NCBI GenBank assembly: GCA_963726255.1
Contig: CAVSBL010000002.1
Coordinates: 1,632,001 to 1,696,000, forward strand
Origin: Candidatus Bathyarchaeota archaeon
Lineage (GTDB): Archaea > Thermoproteota > Bathyarchaeia > 40CM-2-53-6
DNA: 64,000 nucleotides
Direction: 5' to 3'
Each line of letters starts with the position of its first letter. Positions within the stretch are counted from its first letter, which is position 1. Shown one piece after another: positions 4,059 through 12,149 of this stretch. The notes under the pieces were generated by a model. It was not told the origin of the DNA. It was given only the letters and a program-made list of their open reading frames with translations, and made no database searches. The translations under genes were made by a program, and so were the position numbers.

Positions 4059-4610
4059 TTATTGCTTCGCGTGCCATTCAATCTCTCGCTTACTCTCCCT
4101 GTGATTTGCTAACCGAGCCATTACGAAGAGCAGGTCTGAGAGGCGATTCATATACGGGAACAATTGTTCGTTTACCGGCTCTGCCCTGCTGAGGGCAATG
4201 ACTCGTCTCTCTGCACGTCTGGCTACCGTTCGCGCATTATGGAGCAATGCCCCTGCCACACCGCCCCCGGGAAGGATGAATGCCGTTAGCGGCTGCAGTT
4301 CGGCTTCAAATCTGTCGATTGTATTTTCCATTCCAATGACCTTCTCCTTCGAAATCTTGGGAACGTTGCGCTGCTGATGCTCCGCTGTGGAAGCCAAATC
4401 GGCCCCCACTACGAATAGATCGTTCTGCAATTCCGATAAGAGATCATCGAGTTCGCGGTCGTGTATAAATGCCCTTGCGATTCCAAGGACTGAATTAAGT
4501 TCGTCCACGCTCCCGTAGGCATCAACACGCAAGGAGTCCTTGGGAACCCTAGCCCCGCCAACGAGACCAGTCTCACCTTTGTCGCCGGTTCGCGTGTATA
4601 TCTTTGCCAA
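4059..4610 (-). CDS. pduO: ATP:cob(I)alamin adenosyltransferase, PduO type
   Basis: KIYTRTGDKGET, GSVDELNS, ARRAERR, NRLSDLLF; start placed at TTG 4610. Confidence 0.93.
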   Translation of the reverse strand: MAKIYTRTGDKGETGLVGGARVPKDSLRVDAYGSVDELNSVLGIARAFIHDRELDDLLSELQNDLFVVGADLASTAEHQQRNVPKISKEKVIGMENTIDRFEAELQPLTAFILPGGGVAGALLHNARTVARRAERRVIALSRAEPVNEQLFPYMNRLSDLLFVMARLANHRESKREIEWHAKQ

Positions 4611-4686
4611 TTTCGAGTACTCGCCATTAAAAGGGGCAGGACAGCAATTTAGGGGCGTTGGTGCGCACCGGCTGAGGAGAGTCGAA

Positions 4687-5559
4687 TTGAAGATAGGCGT
4701 ACTCTTGGACGAGCCTGAGATCATCCCTGGATTTGATTACACATTCTATGAGGTGAAGCCATCGAGCGGCAGAATAAATCAGCCTCTTCCGAAAGCGTGG
4801 AACGTCGTGAATTGCTTCGCCGATAACACGATCACTCAAACTAAACCTGAGCTTGTAGCCACATCGAAGGGAGAGCGAGCAGCGAGGGGGACCCCCAAGC
4901 ACTTTCTATGGGATTGGATTTGCCCCTCCCGCGCTGAATATCGCGATTACTGTTTGAAAGTGATTCAAGATGTCGCACGCCACGAAATTGATGGAATTCG
5001 TCTGGATAGTGTGTGCTTCCCAAGGGAAAACTACTGTGACTGCCCCAATTGCACAGACCTGAGTAGAGAAAGCGACATGGATTTCATAGAATGGCGATCT
5101 AGTCAAATCGAGTCTTTCATTCGCACCGTGCGGGAGAGCATCACATGCAGTCTGGGTCTAACGTTGGAACCCGACCCATGCTATGGAAAAGAAAGATTCG
5201 GCTTGGACCTAGAGAAAATATCGGAATATGTCGACTTCCTTTCCACACCGCTCTACATGGACTACTCGATTGTCTATTGGCTGGACATAATCGCAAACTG
5301 TTTTCGACGCAAGATATCGAAGCCTTACTTCATTGAACTCTACGCAGGGCATCCAAGAGCACCCACAAAACATCTCGTATCCGCATTGGCTGTGGCTTCC
5401 GGGTTCGCTGACTGCGTCGTTCTCTCGACGTATGAGGCGAAAATCGCCAAGGACCTTCAACGGGAGATGATGCAGAACAAAGAAGTCACGACGTTCTTCG
5501 AAGAGCGGGAATGTGCCGCCATGTTGGAGGTTCTGAATCGATGGCGGGAAATTCTCTGA
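4687..5559 (+). CDS. Putative glycoside-hydrolase-like TIM-barrel protein with Cys cluster
   Basis: WICPS..EYR, DGIRLDSVCFP..YCDCPNC resembles GHL10/DUF187-like proteins; start placed at TTG 4687. Confidence 0.5.
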   Translation: MKIGVLLDEPEIIPGFDYTFYEVKPSSGRINQPLPKAWNVVNCFADNTITQTKPELVATSKGERAARGTPKHFLWDWICPSRAEYRDYCLKVIQDVARHEIDGIRLDSVCFPRENYCDCPNCTDLSRESDMDFIEWRSSQIESFIRTVRESITCSLGLTLEPDPCYGKERFGLDLEKISEYVDFLSTPLYMDYSIVYWLDIIANCFRRKISKPYFIELYAGHPRAPTKHLVSALAVASGFADCVVLSTYEAKIAKDLQREMMQNKEVTTFFEERECAAMLEVLNRWREIL

Positions 5560-5606
5560 TGGTATTACTGCTTGTTGGTTCAACGCACATTTTTGTACGC
5601 TGTAGC

Positions 5607-5614
5607 TTTAAATA
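5607..5614 (+). promoter_or_regulatory. TATA box of the trp operon
   Basis: TTTAAATA about 50 nt upstream of ATG 5665; GAGGA SD-like at 5653-5657. Confidence 0.6.
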
Positions 5615-5664
5615 AAGTAGTGTTGTGAAGTATGAAGCATCACGTCACTGCAGAGGAAGCATAA

Positions 5665-5721
5665 ATGGGGTATAGCCTTTGGGCGGCAGGCCCAACAACT
5701 AACGGCGCAAACAGAGCATAG
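5665..5721 (+). other. trp leader ORF MGYSLWAAGPTTNGANRA (18 aa, one Trp), overlapping the trpE frame
   Basis: ATG 5665 to TAG 5719-5721; CTT 5677-5679, TGG 5680-5682. Confidence 0.55.
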
Positions 5722-7072
5722 GCTGAAGCTTCAGAAGTTTCGGTACTCGACGAACCCCCTGCAAACTTTTCTTGCGCTCAGCAATCAAAGCGAATACTGT
5801 TATCTGCTCGAATCTGCTGAAGGCCCAAGAAAACTCGCGCAGTATTCTTTCATTGGGTTCTCCCCTGAAAAAACCGTCGAGGTGAAGGATGGCCGTTATA
5901 CGGAGACAATCTCCCGAGGAGAATCCACGACAGTTCAAACAGACGATCCATATTTGCCGCTTCGGAAAATACTGGCTGAGAATTTCACAAGATATCATGG
6001 GTTCAGATTCGTAGGTGGCCTAGTGGGCTACTTCTCCTACGATGCAATTCGCTATTTGGAATCTTTACCCAGTAGAGCCCGCGATGACCTTAGACTTCCG
6101 GACTTCGAGTTTGGAGCCTACGACGATGGAATCGTATTCGATCACTTGGCAGGTCAAGCCTACTATTACTGGTACAAGAATAATCGGTTGAGAGAGATTG
6201 AACGGCTTCTGGCCTACAAAACAACGCCAACGACTCTGATTGTTGAGAACCCGCGAACAAACTTAAAGCGAGAGCACTTTGAATCGATGGTGGGCGAGGC
6301 TAAGCGTTACATTAGAGCCGGCGATATATTTCAGGTCGTACTCTCAAAACGTTTTGAATTTGCGTTCAAGGGCGACCTTCTCAATTTCTACAAAGTATTG
6401 CGGGAGATCAACCCCTCGCCGTACATGTATTACCTGAAAATGAAAGACCGTGCGATAGTGGGCTCAAGCCCCGAGATGCTCGGTAGAGTTGACAAAGGTC
6501 GTGCAGAAACCTTTCCAATAGCCGGCACGCGCCCTGTCGGCAAGAACGATAGAGAAGACCAACGCTTGGCTGATGAACTACTGAAGGACCCGAAAGAACA
6601 AGCCGAACACATTATGCTCATCGACCTAGCAAGAAACGATCTTGGAAAAGTCTGTCAGTTCGGAACGATTGAAGTCCCGGACTTCATGACCGTCCAGAAA
6701 TACAGTCACGTCCAACACATAGTCTCAAGAGTTTTAGGCCAACTGCGGCCCGATTGCGACGCGCTGGACAGTTTCAAAGGAATCTTTCCAGCCGGCACAG
6801 TCTCCGGAGCGCCGAAGAAGAGAGCGATGGAAATTATCGAGGAGTTGGAACCGTCTCGCAGAGGACCATACGCTGGTGCAGCCGGCTATTTCTCGTACAA
6901 CGGCAACTCAGATTTCGCAATTACCATCAGGACCCTAGTCGCCGATGGAAACAAGGCCTACGTGCAGGCCGGGGCAGGGATCGTCGCAGACTCTCAACCG
7001 ACACGAGAATGGTTCGAAACAGAACACAAGGCCAAAGCACTCATTCACGCCTTGAAAGTTAGTGGAATCTGA
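5665..7072 (+). CDS. trpE: Anthranilate synthase component I (start unresolved: +1 shift from ATG 5665, CTG 5723, or an indel)
   Basis: Frame is open upstream of GTG 5882 and encodes YLLESAEGPRKLAQYSFIG; GDIFQVVLS, NPSPYM, EHIMLIDLARND, PAGTVSGAPK. Confidence 0.95.
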
Positions 7073-7073
7073 A

Positions 7074-7655
7074 ATGAAGGTATTGGTCATAGATAATTTC
7101 GACTCGTTCGTATATAACCTCGCCCAATATGTTGGACAATTAGGAGCCGAACCTGTCGTCTACCGAAACAACCAAGTCACATTGCGTGAAGTCGAACAAT
7201 TGGAACCAGACAGGATAATCATCTCGCCAGGCCCCGGCCGACCTGATGATCGCAAATACTTCGGAATTTGCTCAGACATCATAAAGAAATTCGGCCCACG
7301 CGTGCCAACTCTTGGAGTATGCTTGGGGCATCAAGGTATTGCGTATACTTTCGGCGGGTCGATAGTGCCCGCGAAACAGCTCATGCATGGAAAGACTAGT
7401 TTGATCGAGCATGAAAACAATGGGTTGTTCAAAGATGTTGAAAACCCTCTGCGCGCAACAAGATACCATTCACTTGTTTGCTCAAGGAAGAATTTTCCGA
7501 AGTGCCTAGAAGAAACCGCAACCTCAACTGACGACGGCGAGATAATGGGATTGAGACATCGAGAGCATCCCATTTATGGCGTCCAGTTCCACCCCGAATC
7601 CATCTTGACTTCTGAAGGCCTAAAGATCATGAAGAATTTCCTGGACGGACCCTGA
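7074..7655 (+). CDS. trpG: Anthranilate synthase component II
   Basis: IDNFDSF, SPGPG, GVCLGHQ, RYHSL, QFHPES. Confidence 0.96.
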   Translation: MKVLVIDNFDSFVYNLAQYVGQLGAEPVVYRNNQVTLREVEQLEPDRIIISPGPGRPDDRKYFGICSDIIKKFGPRVPTLGVCLGHQGIAYTFGGSIVPAKQLMHGKTSLIEHENNGLFKDVENPLRATRYHSLVCSRKNFPKCLEETATSTDDGEIMGLRHREHPIYGVQFHPESILTSEGLKIMKNFLDGP

Positions 7656-7657
7656 GA

Positions 7658-8719
7658 TTGATTAGAGAAGCCATTCAACTGTTAGTGGACCGGAAGGACT
7701 TGCCCTTCGAACTCGCGCAGCAATCAATGCGAGAGATTATGGTGGGAGAAGCAACACCCTCTCAGATCGGTGCGTTCCTAACATCGCTTCGGATGAAGGG
7801 GGAAACTGTTGAAGAAATCACTGCCCTCGCTATGGTAATGCGTGATAATGCCGTTCGAATAAACCCGCATGTGAGCGGAAGGACGGTTGACACTTGTGGG
7901 ACAGGGGGAGACCGGTTGAAAACATTCAACGTGAGTACCGCAGCTGCCCTTGTCGCAGCCGGTGCGGGCGTAGCTGTTGCAAAGCACGGAAACCGTTCGG
8001 TCACCAGTAAATGCGGCAGCGCAGACGTTTTGGAAGCGATTGGGGTCAATCTGAACGTTCCACCCTTAACGGTTCAGAGAGCAATAGAACAGGTAGGGAT
8101 TGGTTTCATGTTCGCGCCCGCATTCCACCCGGCAATGAAGAATGCTATTGTTCCACGACGGGAGATAGGGGTTCGAACGGTTTTCAATATCCTCGGCCCA
8201 CTCACAAACCCTGCCAACGCGAGTGCGCAAGTCCTAGGAGTCTACGACCCAAAGCTTGTTGAGCCCATGGCACAGGTGTTGCAGAAACTCGGTACCGAAG
8301 AAGCCATGGTAGTCCACGGCGTCGAAGGCCTGGACGAAATATCAACCATAGGCAAAACTAAGCTTGCATGGTTGAAAGACGGACAGACCACGAGCAGAGA
8401 AATCACCCCGCAAGACCTGAACCTCAAGCAAGCTCGACCCAACGAAATTTCCGGCTTTGACATCAACCAAAACGCCAAGCTGCTCGTTCACATAATCAAT
8501 GGCAGCGAGGATAGGCTCTCGACAAGGCTTCAGATGGTTCTTGCAAACGCCGCAGCTGCAATCGTGGTTGGAGGAAAAGCACACGACTTAGCAACTGGTG
8601 TGGAAGTCGGCCGCGAGGCCATTGCAAGTGGAAGGGCGTACGAGAAGCTGAAGCAGCTGATCGAAATCACGAACGGCGACGAGTCCAAACTTGAAAGGAT
8701 AGAATCACAAAATGCCTGA
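7658..8719 (+). CDS. trpD: Anthranilate phosphoribosyltransferase
   Basis: DTCGTGGD, FNVST, KHGNRSVTSKCGSAD, GPLTNP. Confidence 0.97.
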   Translation: MIREAIQLLVDRKDLPFELAQQSMREIMVGEATPSQIGAFLTSLRMKGETVEEITALAMVMRDNAVRINPHVSGRTVDTCGTGGDRLKTFNVSTAAALVAAGAGVAVAKHGNRSVTSKCGSADVLEAIGVNLNVPPLTVQRAIEQVGIGFMFAPAFHPAMKNAIVPRREIGVRTVFNILGPLTNPANASAQVLGVYDPKLVEPMAQVLQKLGTEEAMVVHGVEGLDEISTIGKTKLAWLKDGQTTSREITPQDLNLKQARPNEISGFDINQNAKLLVHIINGSEDRLSTRLQMVLANAAAAIVVGGKAHDLATGVEVGREAIASGRAYEKLKQLIEITNGDESKLERIESQNA

Positions 8720-9485
8720 CATCCTAAGCAAATTAGTTGAAGATGCCAAAAGAAGGATCAGCAGTGGATACTACGAGATTGAAGAGACTACAAGACACCA
8801 ACCCATTAGCCTCACCCGCGCACTAAATTCAGCTCACAACAATGCCATAATCGCAGAGATCAAACCCATTTCACCCGCGCTAGGCCCCCTACGTCCAAAC
8901 ATTGACCCAGTCGATGCAGCCATCAAGCTAGCCAGAGGCGGCGCGGTAGCCTTATCGGTTCTAACTGAACCCGACAACTTTGGCGGCAAAATAGATTACT
9001 TGAGAAGAATCAGAGAGAAGGTGGACCTTCCCCTCCTTATGAAGGACATAATCGTTCACAAAGCACAGATTCAGGCTGGCAGGGAATCTGGCGCCGACTG
9101 TGTACTCCTCATAGAATCAGTATTCTCAGCACACCACGCGCCCCTTGAAAGTCTAATTCAATACGCACACCAGAACCAACTGGAAGTTCTCCTAGAAGTT
9201 CACAGCGAAGAAGAGCTGGAAAGGGCTCTGGTAAGTGAGGCGGACATCATTGGTGTCAACAACAGAAACCTCGCGACCCTCGAAACCGACCTCAACACGA
9301 CTGCACGACTTCTCAACAGAGTTGATGAAAAGTGTGGAAAGGCGCTCATAAGCGAGAGCGGTTTTGAAAACGCAAGGGACATACGCAAGTTGAAGTCAAG
9401 GCCAGTGGATGGTTTTCTGATAGGCTCTTCAATTATGCTCTCAGAGGACCTGGAACGTAAGGTCCGGGAGTTCGTACTTGCCTAA
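8712..9485 (+). CDS. trpC: Indole-3-glycerol phosphate synthase
   Basis: IIAEIKPISP, SVLTEP, LEVH, GVNNRNL, SESG. Confidence 0.96.
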   Translation: MPDILSKLVEDAKRRISSGYYEIEETTRHQPISLTRALNSAHNNAIIAEIKPISPALGPLRPNIDPVDAAIKLARGGAVALSVLTEPDNFGGKIDYLRRIREKVDLPLLMKDIIVHKAQIQAGRESGADCVLLIESVFSAHHAPLESLIQYAHQNQLEVLLEVHSEEELERALVSEADIIGVNNRNLATLETDLNTTARLLNRVDEKCGKALISESGFENARDIRKLKSRPVDGFLIGSSIMLSEDLERKVREFVLA

Positions 9486-9496
9486 GGAAGACGACA

Positions 9497-10141
9497 ATGC
9501 GAGTCAAAATCTGTGGCTTGATGCGACCGAAGGATGTGAGGTTTGCTTTGGATAGCGGCGCAGATGCCGTCGGTGTCGTTGTAGCCAGCCCATCTTCCCG
9601 AAGAAACTTACCATTGAACCAAGCACGAAAGTTGATGAGAACGGTTCCAATCTTCGCCATGAAGGTGGTGGTCACCTCCGCAAATGATGGGAAAATCCTG
9701 CTCAGGATTTGCTCCAGTCTTAGGCCTGACGCACTACAGCTCCATCAACACCAGCGGGAGCTAGTACGATCGATTAGGCGAAAACATCCTGAAACCAAGC
9801 TCATTCTTGCCACAGCGATTAGTGGCCCTTCTGGATTGCGGCAGGCATGTATGGCATCGGGGTATTCAGATGCTGTTTTGGCAGACTCACCCAACCATGA
9901 CGGGATGGGTGGCACAGGCCGAACTCATGACTGGAACCTCACGGCAACTCTTCGCGACAGGATATACCCTCATCCCTTAATCCTGGCGGGGGGGCTAACT
10001 CCAAGCAATGTTCAAACGGCCATCAAAAAGGTCAGGCCATTCGCGGTAGATGTTTCAAGCGGCGTGGAGAAGACAGTGGGAGTTAAGGACCCACGTAAAA
10101 TTCGGGACTTCATAATGAGAGCAAAGGAGGACATGAATTGA
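9497..10141 (+). CDS. trpF: Phosphoribosylanthranilate isomerase
   Basis: [26 protein letters not shown]. Confidence 0.96.
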
Positions 10142-11337
10142 CACAGGAACATTCGCACGTTGTCGATGGCAAGTTCGGGAAGTATGGCGGCCGCTTCGTT
10201 CCGGAGACGCTAATGGGTGCTCTCATCGAGCTGGAAAAGGAATATACACGGCTGAAGAACGACCCGGAATTCAAATCTCAACTTTCTTATCTTCTCAAAG
10301 AATTCGCAGGGCGTCCTACACCCCTTTACTACGCTGCGAACTTGACCCGAAAAGCCGGCGGCGCGAAGATATACATCAAACGTGAAGACTTGGCGCACGG
10401 CGGCGCACACAAGATCAACAACACGATTGGGCAGGCACTTCTCGCGAAACGAATGGGAAGAAACCGGGTCATAGCGGAAACTGGCGCTGGTCAGCACGGC
10501 GTTGCAAGCGCCATAGCGTGCGCGGCGCTAGGCCTCAAGTGCGAGGTCTACATGGGTTCCGAAGATGTGGAACGACAGAAACTAAACGTCTTCCGCATGA
10601 ATCTTCTAGGAACTAAGGTCCATTCGGTTCACTCAGGATCGAGGACGCTCAAGGATGCGATAAACGAAACCTTCCGAGATTGGGTATCGAACGTTGAGAA
10701 CACTTACTATCTGCTTGGTTCAGTAGTGGGCCCCCACCCATACCCTACCTTAGTAAGAGATTTTCAGAGCGTTATCGGCCTAGAGATCAAAGAGCAGATT
10801 CTGCAGAAGGAAGGACGCCTGCCGGATGCGATAGTTGCCTGCGTGGGCGGGGGAAGCAACTCGATGGGCGCGTTCTATCCTTTCATTGAAGACACGCAAG
10901 TGGCATTGCATGGTGTGGAAGCCGGCGGCCTAGGCCTTGCGTCTGGAAAACACGCTGCAACATTGTGCGCTGGACAGGAAGGCGTCTTTCACGGAATGCT
11001 TACCTACATCCTTCAGGATGAGGACGGTCAAATCCAGTCAACACACAGCATCTCAGCCGGCCTAGACTACCCAGGAGTTGGCCCAGAACATGCATACCTG
11101 AAGGCTACCGGACGTGCTCAATACACTTCGGCAACGGATCAACAAGCCGTGGAAGCCTTCATGGAACTAAGTCGGCTTGAAGGCATCATACCAGCTCTCG
11201 AATCCGCACACGCCGTACATTACGCAACGATTTTGGCGTCGAAAATGAAGCAAGACCAGCTTGTAGTGATCAACCTCTCGGGACGCGGAGATAAGGACGT
11301 TAATGTTGTCGCCAAAAATCTGGGCGTTAAGATATGA
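10138..11337 (+). CDS. trpB: Tryptophan synthase beta chain (TrpB1)
   Basis: [37 protein letters not shown]. Confidence 0.98.
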
Positions 11338-12149
11338 CGAGAATCTCAGAGTTATTCGCTCAATTGAAGGAGAGTGGCGAAGGTGCACTCATAGCCTACC
11401 TGACAGTAGGATACCCAAACCTTAGACAAACCCCTCGCCTAATCGGAGCACTGATCAAAGGTGGGGCAGACATCATCGAACTTGGAATCCCATTCTCGGA
11501 TCCGATCGCGGATGGGCCAACGATTCAGAACGCTACCACGCGTTCCTTGGAGAGCGGCGTTAGGCCCCTCGACGCTTTAGAGATAGCTCGAACAGTCCAC
11601 GAGAAATACGACACGCCCCTTGTTCTAATGAGCTACTTCAACCCCATATACCGAGTTGGATTACAGAAATTTCTGACCTTGACAAAGAATTCCGGGATAT
11701 CGGGAATTATTGTTCCTGACCTCCCGGTAGAAGAATCAAAAGATTACAAGAATGAATGCGTTTCAACCGACATCGACACCATCTTCTTGGCATCGCCCTC
11801 CACTCATCCGGACAGGCTTAAGCAGATTCTGGCTCAGACCTCGGGTTACCTCTACCTGATTTCACTATACGGTGTCACGGGTGTCCGGTCGTCAGTTGCT
11901 GAATCAGCTCTGACTCTGATCAGGAAATACCGCGGTGCAATGGCTGGTTCCGTCCCCCTCGCAGTGGGGTTTGGAATCTCTACACCCGACCACGTTAGAG
12001 CAATGATCCATGCCGGAGCAGATGGTGCGATCGTCGGCAGCGCATTCATTGAGATAATCAGGAAGAACCAGCGGAACCCGATTCATGCAGCCAAAAAATT
12101 GGAGAACATGACCAAGGCCATGAAAAAAGCAACTTTAGGATCCAAATGA
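11334..12149 (+). CDS. trpA: Tryptophan synthase alpha chain
   Basis: [39 protein letters not shown]. Confidence 0.97.

Follow-up and report, generated by a model that had tools for sequence, protein, structure and literature searches.

A candidate tryptophan-sensing +1 frameshift site at the start of archaeal trpE

The stretch of archaeal DNA analysed here—64,000 nucleotides from a Candidatus Bathyarchaeota archaeon, referred to below as the window—contains a complete trp operon whose first gene, trpE, encodes component I of anthranilate synthase in a reading frame displaced by one base from that of the start codon preceding it. Synthesis of TrpE probably proceeds by programmed +1 ribosomal frameshifting at a Trp codon of a short leading frame, such that slow decoding of this codon would raise TrpE production when charged tRNA-Trp is scarce. 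The sequences themselves show the layout, how widely it is kept, where a shift has to fall and which frame codes beyond it. That the frameshift itself takes place is likely, as strongly inferred from comparison of relatives, and the trans-frame protein is predicted on this basis. A response of the shifting rate to tryptophan is plausible from the logic of the arrangement. Extended to the phylum as a whole, the proposal becomes one of an ancient Trp feedback, in which a single hungry Trp codon, the sixth of the message or in some lineages the fourth to eighth, would allow TrpE to be made only when charged tRNA-Trp is low; this wider reading is favoured as well, with less assurance.

Reading frames and conservation at the start of trpE

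The proposed start of TrpE synthesis is an ATG at 5665-5667 on the + strand, which is out of frame with trpE. It opens a zero frame (5665-5721, +) of 18 codons and a TAG (5719-5721), with a single Trp codon, which would be the product of non-shifting ribosomes. Direct reading of the window gives ATG GGG TAT AGC CTT TGG as its first six codons, with CTT at 5677-5679, the overlapping triplet TTT at 5678-5680, TGG at 5680-5682 and GGG at 5681-5683. The slip site CTT_T accordingly spans 5677-5680 (+), where the P-site tRNA is proposed to move from CTT to TTT, and the zero-frame A-site codon TGG (5680-5682, +), the sole Trp codon of the short frame, is the proposed sensor. The trpE frame is +1 relative to the frame of ATG 5665; it is open from 5636, after a TGA at 5633-5635, and between 5636 and a GTG at 5882 the window holds no ATG, GTG or TTG in this frame. 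Read from 5681, it comprises 463 amino acids, two of them Trp, without a stop: a post-shift linker in the +1 frame (5681-5722, +), beginning with the Gly codon GGG, leads into the conserved body of trpE (5723-7072, +, stop codon included), in which Pfam recognizes Anth_synt_I_N (4.4e-33), beginning at residue 11 counted from 5723, and after it the chorismate-binding domain (Chorismate_bind, 2e-100). The conserved LLES...YSFIG segment is encoded in the +1 frame, and the longest conventional open reading frame (ORF), which begins at 5882, misses about 53 conserved residues including this segment. A first-pass annotation made from the window alone had described the ATG 5665 frame, the +1 trpE frame, the start-less stretch and the CTT-TGG at 5677-5682, and its reading of the window is confirmed in each of these respects.

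The same annotation had considered that a spurious extra base might simulate a shifted frame, and had proposed that the bases be checked for indels. Contigs from four public runs belonging to three studies—one of the runs possibly being the source sample—were compared with the window over 5300-6300. All of them span 5640-5735, and over this interval no base is inserted or missing in any of the contigs; related strains differ from the window by substitutions, for example at 5637, 5649, 5652 and 5662. The extra-base alternative is thereby ruled out, by the indel-free contigs together with the conservation in relatives described next. One contig, X20, stems from an RNA library: with a length of 297 nucleotides it covers 5443-5735 free of gaps and with 21 substitutions, belongs to a related strain and starts within the upstream gene, and it indicates the presence of the stretch only, neither a transcript start nor expression.

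TrpE was detected in 28 of 41 close relatives and in 121 of 301 genomes of the window's class. The class set consists of 122 TrpE 5′ regions (L002-L027 and L032-L127); left out were fragments without the N-terminus (L028, L029), distant paralogues (L030, L031), low-identity second matches and matches falling short of the first 25 residues (G046, G298, G247, G049, G095, G244, G212 and a C-terminal piece of G133). As a strict cassette we counted a start codon followed by nine nucleotides and NTT TGG, provided that TTT fell in the trpE frame and that the two frames were open wherever required. Of the 122 class loci, 109 carry it, distributed over 16 of 18 families and 36 of 41 genera. Its start codon is ATG at 101 of these loci and GTG or TTG at four each, always 12 nucleotides 5′ of NTT. 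Codon 5 is CTT (52 loci), GTT (38), ATT (12) or TTT (7), always with T as the next base, and for each variant the P-site tRNA retains two or three pairs after a move of one base. The A-site codon reached by the shift is GGN (Gly) in all 109 cassette loci, and TGG is invariant at the zero-frame A site of the loci needing a shift, with L123 (TAG) as the sole exception. The zero-frame ORFs range from 7 to 51 amino acids with a median of 17, and a second Trp codon occurs in only two of them.

Departures from the strict cassette were seen at 13 class loci, 11 of which start at an in-frame ATG, GTG or TTG at or just before the conserved body. L121 possesses the cassette with its start codon 18 instead of 12 nucleotides upstream. 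In L085, a naturally 'pre-shifted' variant, leader codons 1-5 already run in frame into the remainder of the gene. At L010 the motif is present and is preceded, two codons upstream, by an in-frame ATG. One genome (G263) carries two copies of trpE: L122, cassette-free with an ordinary in-frame ATG, and L123, which reads ATG GGT GAT CCA CTT TAG. The stop codon in place of TGG brings L123 even closer to prfB, the bacterial release factor 2 gene expressed through a +1 shift; an in-frame GTG is also open at this locus.

The motif is tightly linked to the frame of the gene that follows. Within 150 nucleotides of the TrpE N-terminus the bare motif occurs 110 times among the 122 loci; its TTT lies in the trpE frame in all 110 instances, and in neither of the other two frames was a bare motif found. 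Start codon and conserved body are separated by 37 to 70 nucleotides; 12 different spacings occur in this range, each equal to 1 mod 3, and indels therefore appear to be tolerated only in multiples of three. At 51 of the 109 loci there is no ATG, GTG or TTG in the trpE frame from the upstream stop to 30 nucleotides into the conserved body, and at 48 of the 109 a trpE-frame stop falls within leader codons 2-5, often as the TGA of ATGA. In one family (L113, L114, L116, L127, L121) a TAG or TAA in the trpE frame stands directly 5′ of TTT, and a trpE-frame stop occupies the same place in L222 and L226-L228 of other classes. These stops, in nine loci, pin the shift to NTT_T. Between the 5′ stop and the earliest zero-frame end, at seven codons, the sole conserved element is N-TTT-GG.

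Constraint downstream of the slip site was assessed in 37 nearest-neighbour pairs of equal spacer length. Codon differences in the spacer are synonymous in 72 and non-synonymous in 138 cases when read in the trpE frame, and synonymous in 19 and non-synonymous in 190 when read in the zero frame; by trpE codon position they number 83, 87 and 136. The spacer therefore has the character of a linker under weak constraint, with that of trpE as its reading frame, and the zero-frame peptide is not conserved after Trp. In the window's genus, the zero-frame stop lies either 4 nucleotides (TAG, 12 of 16 loci) or 10 nucleotides (TGA, 4 of 16 loci) before the codon homologous to that at 5723, and the His or Arg codon overlapping the TAG ends in T wherever this stop occurs. 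The fixed position of the stop in this genus may be due to chance linkage to conserved residues or to selection for early termination.

Other placements of the initiation or slippage event were tried and rejected. A shift right after the start codon (ATG_R) is excluded by the stops directly 5′ of TTT in the nine loci; a near-cognate Ile start in the leader (ATA or ATC) is excluded by GCT, ACT or GTT at this codon in L037, L048 and L049 and by stops that close the frame just past it in other lineages; and transcriptional slippage was rejected on general grounds, the T run measuring only 3-5 bases. Genome-wide, a loose form of the pattern yields three matches versus three for the reversed pattern, which is chance level, and the signal is therefore specific to trpE. 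A search of the genome for a second cassette, requiring RGG as codon 2 and admitting every codon at the A site, returned five candidates, among which only trpE is without an upstream in-frame start; a looser genome scan returned 29, none of them convincing as judged without homology checks. Outside the window, two identical stretches (TTGAAACCATTTTGA) occur in the same genome (G000) on contigs C2 (1161164, +) and C3 (4546, -). Both precede open frames of 452 codons whose first canonical start is 33 codons downstream, and the pair may represent a repeated mobile-element gene with a T-run/TGA site.

The Shine-Dalgarno sequence serving ATG 5665 lies at 5652-5659 (+), with GAGGAAG at 5653-5659, five nucleotides before the ATG; in the genus-weighted logo it appears as a purine- and G-rich block at -13 to -9 from the start codon, constituting the Shine-Dalgarno sequence of the out-of-frame start. 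There is also an internal Shine-Dalgarno-like stretch at 5667-5674 (+), GGGGUAUA in the window and RGGKAUC in the consensus, which is a candidate shift stimulator and ends 2-5 nucleotides before the shift codon. Positions 4-12 of the cassette, none of them required by the search, are strongly conserved with the consensus RGGKAUCGY. The genome's own 16S rRNA has the 3′ end ...GGATCACCTCCT, and duplexes predicted with this tail have mean energies of -7.8 kcal/mol for nucleotides 1-12 of the cassette and -7.25 kcal/mol for the upstream Shine-Dalgarno region. Control 12-mers from the trpE body average -3.1 kcal/mol, and 4.4% of them reach the cassette median. In the other classes the mean duplex energies range from -5.9 to -13.8, some lineages having a perfect match to the 16S tail over at least seven bases (GGTGATC, -13.8). 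The likeness to the prfB cassette pointed out in the first-pass annotation is thus extended to the internal Shine-Dalgarno-like stretch (-7.8 versus -3.1 kcal/mol for the controls), to which the analogy would assign the role of stimulator.

A class-wide RNA structure was not detected: in four windows around the site, mean folding z-scores over the 109 loci range from -0.26 to +0.10, without excess folding. In the window's genus, a local hairpin UUGGGC-N5-GCCCAA (5679-5695, +) contains the Trp codon and the first +1 codons. Pairing of UUUGG with a downstream CCAAA-like stretch is present at 13 of 16 loci of this genus and includes compensatory changes (GGAC/GUCC in L007), whereas class-wide the hairpin gives no signal, the mean of the genus mean z-scores being -0.08. 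By the time a ribosome reached the slip site, the 5679-5695 hairpin would have been melted. Searching Rfam 15 with 5400-6000 gave a single match, to a nematode small nucleolar RNA, with an E-value of 1.4 and 15.8 bits versus a cut-off of 48.

Distribution in other classes and in ammonia oxidizers

AmoA is encoded in none of the 301 class genomes and in 26 of 201 genomes sampled from the phylum, all 26 belonging to one family (f35). It therefore appears that the window's organism is a non-ammonia-oxidizing relative of the ammonia oxidizers; in its own genome neither AmoA nor CdhC was found. AmoC gave no match in five genomes, nor did it in the control genomes. TrpE was found in 107 of the 201 phylum-sample genomes, from which 40 hand-picked 5′ regions of other classes were compared with a start codon allowed 3-30 nucleotides upstream. 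Among these 40 loci the cassette is present in 27: all 14 of the AmoA-positive family f35, all five of f58, all four of f48, the single loci of f41, f53 and f42, and one of two in f47. It is absent from f39 (seven loci), f50 (four) and f59 (one), which have ordinary in-frame starts, and in L221 the cassette has been lost and an in-frame ATG is found instead. The out-of-frame start with NTT-TGG, which the first-pass annotation had proposed to look for in related archaea, has accordingly been kept at 109 of 122 loci within the class and 27 of 40 beyond it.

Distant lineages differ in where the start codon lies: Trp is the fourth codon in f48 and the sixth or seventh in f58. In f48 (L223-L225, L231) the leader is two codons shorter, reading ATG TGY CTT TGG, with GGGG directly before the ATG, and in f58 (L226-L229, L251) TTG or ATG starts lie 15-18 nucleotides before the slip codon. 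Across these other classes it is the Shine-Dalgarno-like stretch, not the start codon, whose distance to NTT-TGG is maintained. At all 14 loci of the AmoA-positive family, a TATA-like box ends 22-23 nucleotides before the ATG. In a published analysis, leaderless archaeal genes have a spacing of 22-24 nucleotides, and all 11 Thaumarchaeota covered there are classed as leaderless (PMC6028130). The ATG of the AmoA-positive family is therefore likely to be a 5′-terminal start. As an outgroup, a general TrpE scan of species genomes was used: among the matches listed, 78 of 80 were examinable, mostly bacterial ones, and the motif occurs in three of these 78, all three labelled Nitrososphaerota or Thaumarchaeota. 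It is absent from the approximately 73 bacterial and other archaeal loci among the matches listed.

Proposed mechanism and competing explanations

In the proposed mechanism, ribosomes would start at ATG 5665 by way of its own Shine-Dalgarno sequence and then read four more codons, which would place CUU (5677-5679) in the P site and UGG, the Trp codon, in the A site. If Trp-tRNA arrived promptly, reading would continue in frame and terminate 13 codons later at 5719-5721, and TrpE would not be made. If Trp-tRNA were scarce, the A site would stay empty and the P-site tRNA would re-pair one base downstream on UUU, a slip that may be assisted if the 16S 3′ tail pairs with codons 1-4, where the Shine-Dalgarno-like stretch lies. 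After the slip, GGG (Gly, 5681) would be read and translation would run on into trpE, from where overlapping junctions would probably carry it into the rest of the operon. The whole device would constitute a feedback loop set by charged tRNA-Trp, and since the sensor codon stands for tryptophan, the final product, and would gate the first enzyme of its synthesis, the sign of the regulation would be right. The individual steps are familiar from prfB, Ty1 and hungry-codon shifting, in which an empty A site permits re-pairing in the P site and anti-Shine-Dalgarno pairing near the P site favours the slip. Of the features of prfB-type recoding, the following are found at trpE: overlapping frames in +1 register with a start-less downstream frame, a P-site codon able to re-pair, conservation of both site and frame, and a Shine-Dalgarno-like stretch 5′ of the shift codon, for which stimulation as such is a prediction.

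Several observations weigh against this proposal. At 58 of the 109 class loci a canonical start exists in the open part of the trpE frame, and the lineages with such an in-frame start are also compatible with ordinary initiation. All 14 AmoA-positive loci have an in-frame GTG nine nucleotides 5′ of TTT; lying four bases downstream and forming part of the GGTG of the Shine-Dalgarno-like stretch, it is the less likely start. Among close relatives, differences at motif positions 4-13 favour trpE-frame third positions (16 versus 7 and 5), a bias that would also fit reading of the trpE frame through the leader. It has been attributed here, tentatively, to the Shine-Dalgarno-like pattern, the trpE frame being closed by stops in 48 loci. 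Stimulation of +1 shifting by a Shine-Dalgarno sequence has, to our knowledge, been shown in bacteria and not in archaea. The lone Trp codon is located at codon 6, a stage at which short peptidyl-tRNAs may drop off, and a single sensor codon at this position may be a blunt sensor. ARAGORN detects 35 tRNA genes in the genome, several with predicted introns, including tRNA-Leu(GAG) and tRNA-Val(GAC), and detects neither a tRNA-Trp nor a tRNA-Ile gene. Archaeal tRNA genes in this genome probably carry introns, and the lack of a tRNA-Trp prediction permits no conclusion on the supply of tRNA-Trp. Finally, both the trans-frame protein and the tryptophan response are predictions.

Among the competing explanations, a constitutive +1 shift at NTT_T, yielding a fixed low ratio of TrpE or acting as a throttle and devoid of any tryptophan sensing, is fairly unlikely, and it fits the anatomy and the conservation equally well. 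UGG would in that case be kept only as a slowly read codon with G next; G17 and G18 are also part of the GGN of the invariant Gly, so that their conservation need not reflect Trp, and L123 carries TAG in place of TGG. Yet UGG is otherwise invariant in the loci that need a shift, ahead of the gene that commits chorismate to tryptophan, the Gly sits in a poorly conserved linker so that protein function leaves GG unexplained, and a constitutive shift would offer no evident gain over an ordinary weak start. Less probable still is an ordinary leader ORF, with TrpE made by re-initiation or from a non-canonical start such as CTG 5723 or the leader Ile codon. The short distance between the zero-frame stop and the 5723-homologous codon in the window's genus speaks for it, as do the 58 of 109 loci with some canonical start in the open trpE frame. 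The start at CTG 5723, which the first-pass annotation had offered as an alternative, is not borne out by relatives, in which the homologous codon is CTG at no more than 29 of 109 loci, one of the canonical starts at just 18, and elsewhere CTA, TTA, ATA, CCA, TCA or others; the Ile position is no better kept, being GCT, ACT or GTT in the three loci named above. The features expected of termination-reinitiation were likewise not found, leaders varying from 7 to 51 codons up to their zero-frame stops and the post-stop codon within the genus being CTG, CTA, TTA or TTT. An independent leader ORF, moreover, could lie in any frame, yet the frame is held by all 110 motifs and across the 12 spacer lengths, and the spacer is under trpE-frame coding constraint from the slip site onward.

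That the conserved nucleotides form the binding site of a regulatory protein or RNA—an operator or a riboswitch-like element—rather than a recoding signal is very improbable. Conservation at the nucleotide level and variable positions that depart from the codon pattern of the zero frame would suit such a site, and the DNA 5′ of the TATA box does contain another conserved element, palindrome-like and distinct from the motif. The thermodynamic structure signal is nevertheless absent from the 109 loci, as is any Rfam family, and a binding site would leave unexplained the frame linkage, the missing trpE starts and the in-frame variants that are free of the motif. A negligible chance is given to faulty sequencing or assembly, or to a pseudogene in decay, which the site resembles only through the bare look of a frameshifted gene start in a metagenome-derived genome: the contigs from three studies are free of indels, the same arrangement recurs in 109 + 27 independent assemblies, and the trpE frame is intact over 463 codons inside a complete trp operon.

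Operon context and relation to known systems

Downstream of trpE, and tightly packed after it, the genes trpG-trpD-trpC-trpF-trpB-trpA follow at 7062-12149 (+), with Pfam matches to GATase, Glycos_transf_3, IGPS, PRAI, PALP and Trp_syntA. By ORF coordinates, four of the six junctions in the trp operon overlap, and translational coupling across them is plausible. The operon promoter has a TATA-like box, TTTAAATA, at 5607-5614 (+), which ends 50 nucleotides 5′ of ATG 5665; a TATA-like box lies within 90 nucleotides of the start at 90 of the 109 class cassette loci, at a median distance of 44 nucleotides. Further upstream, two TGTACA-like boxes (5583-5598, +) form a candidate operator, of which the window matches 14 of 16 positions of the consensus ATGTACATTTTTGTAC; this is a genus-weighted consensus at -24 to -9 from the TATA box, derived from 46 loci in 19 genera. 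The element looks like a transcription-factor operator separate from the frameshift, and a layer of transcriptional control may exist alongside the latter. Its position recalls the TrpY boxes of Methanothermobacter. The site of Tar in Thermococcus is likewise situated upstream of the B recognition element and TATA box (PMC6737238). In one public run (X4), contigs of a depth of up to about 58, versus about 4 elsewhere, match 5582-5626 only and then diverge; this promoter stretch seems to be common to other, more abundant organisms or loci in the X4 sample. Upstream of the operon, the window encodes a cobalamin adenosyltransferase (4059-4724, -; PF01923, 6.1e-62) and a 339-amino-acid protein (4540-5559, +) with a weak glycosyl-hydrolase-like match to DUF4015. 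These two ORFs overlap on opposite strands over 4540-4724, and the TTG start at 4540 is therefore probably placed too far upstream.

In prfB the P-site tRNA slips from a Leu CUU codon to UUU, as is proposed for the window. The zero-frame A-site codon of prfB is slowly decoded, and its decoding rate reports the regulated product, a role that the Trp codon would have at trpE. The two cassettes share a Shine-Dalgarno-like stretch a few bases upstream, and the window sequence closely resembles the prfB cassette. The release factor is sensed at a stop codon in prfB, whereas the trpE cassette is proposed to sense charged tRNA at a Trp sense codon. Unlike its bacterial counterpart, the trpE cassette is archaeal and its P-site codon can also be GUU, AUU or UUU; it is located at codons 5-6, right after the start, while the prfB site is further in, at about 25 codons. 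Eukaryotic ornithine decarboxylase antizyme is made through a +1 shift that takes place at a stop codon in response to polyamines and involves a pseudoknot further downstream as well as effects of the nascent peptide. Like the arrangement proposed for trpE, this is a metabolite-responsive +1 shift that closes a biosynthetic feedback loop, the direction being opposite: a high level of product raises shifting and an inhibitor is made, whereas at trpE a low level of product would raise shifting and the enzyme would be made. The downstream structure of antizyme has no conserved equivalent at the trpE cassette.

The nearest mechanistic analogue is provided by yeast Ty1 and by hungry-codon shifting in E. 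coli, in which a P-site Leu tRNA awaiting a scarce aminoacyl-tRNA slips by +1. In Ty1 a constitutively rare tRNA sets a fixed product ratio, and in E. coli hungry-codon shifting is a starvation error, unlike the switch proposed for trpE. Attenuation at trpL is similar in that a short ORF with Trp codons precedes trpE and the speed of the ribosome senses charged tRNA-Trp. It is, however, transcriptional, operates through alternative hairpins and a terminator and relies on Trp codons in tandem, and trpE retains a start codon separate from the leader. The trpE cassette has one Trp codon, no conserved structure and, at 51 of 109 loci, no separate trpE start; attenuation is accordingly not indicated, given the lack of a structure signal, the single Trp in 107 of 109 leaders and the separate start missing in 51. 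The regulators TrpY of Methanothermobacter and Tar of Thermococcus bind DNA and act on transcription, whereas the trpE cassette would act on translation, and both layers could coexist. Little is stated to be known of archaeal tryptophan regulation beyond TrpY in a paper that itself adds the Tar activator (PMC6737238).

No frameshift in trpE and no Trp-sensing frameshifting was found described in the full-text literature, a search that did not cover subscription journals. On hungry-codon shifting that yields functional trans-frame proteins for starvation, a 2016 review states that 'no examples are known', and the archaeal frameshift cases it lists are few (PMC5009743). The GeneTack survey includes one thaumarchaeal genome and is silent on trp genes in its main text, and its supplementary cluster tables might list one (PMC3711429); the accessible part of PMC13759103 mentions neither a trpE frameshift nor Trp-sensing frameshifting. 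Autoregulatory +1 shifting as such is already known, and what would be new here is its combination with a sense codon as amino-acid sensor.

If the proposal is true, hungry-codon frameshifting would for the first time be seen to serve as a natural regulatory switch, and amino-acid biosynthesis would gain a mode of control in addition to repressors, attenuation, T-boxes and TRAP. A purely translational mechanism would be added to archaeal tryptophan regulation, and the driving of +1 shifts by Shine-Dalgarno-like pairing within a coding region would be extended to archaea. For genome annotation, gene callers mis-start or truncate trpE in these lineages, and tools that judge pathway completeness may flag a false defect. 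Ammonia oxidizers are abundant in oceans and soils, and cultured strains exist; since the cassette is present at 14 of 14 AmoA-positive loci, the hypothesis can therefore be tested at the bench. The device would then be common to ammonia-oxidizing archaea and their sediment-dwelling relatives.

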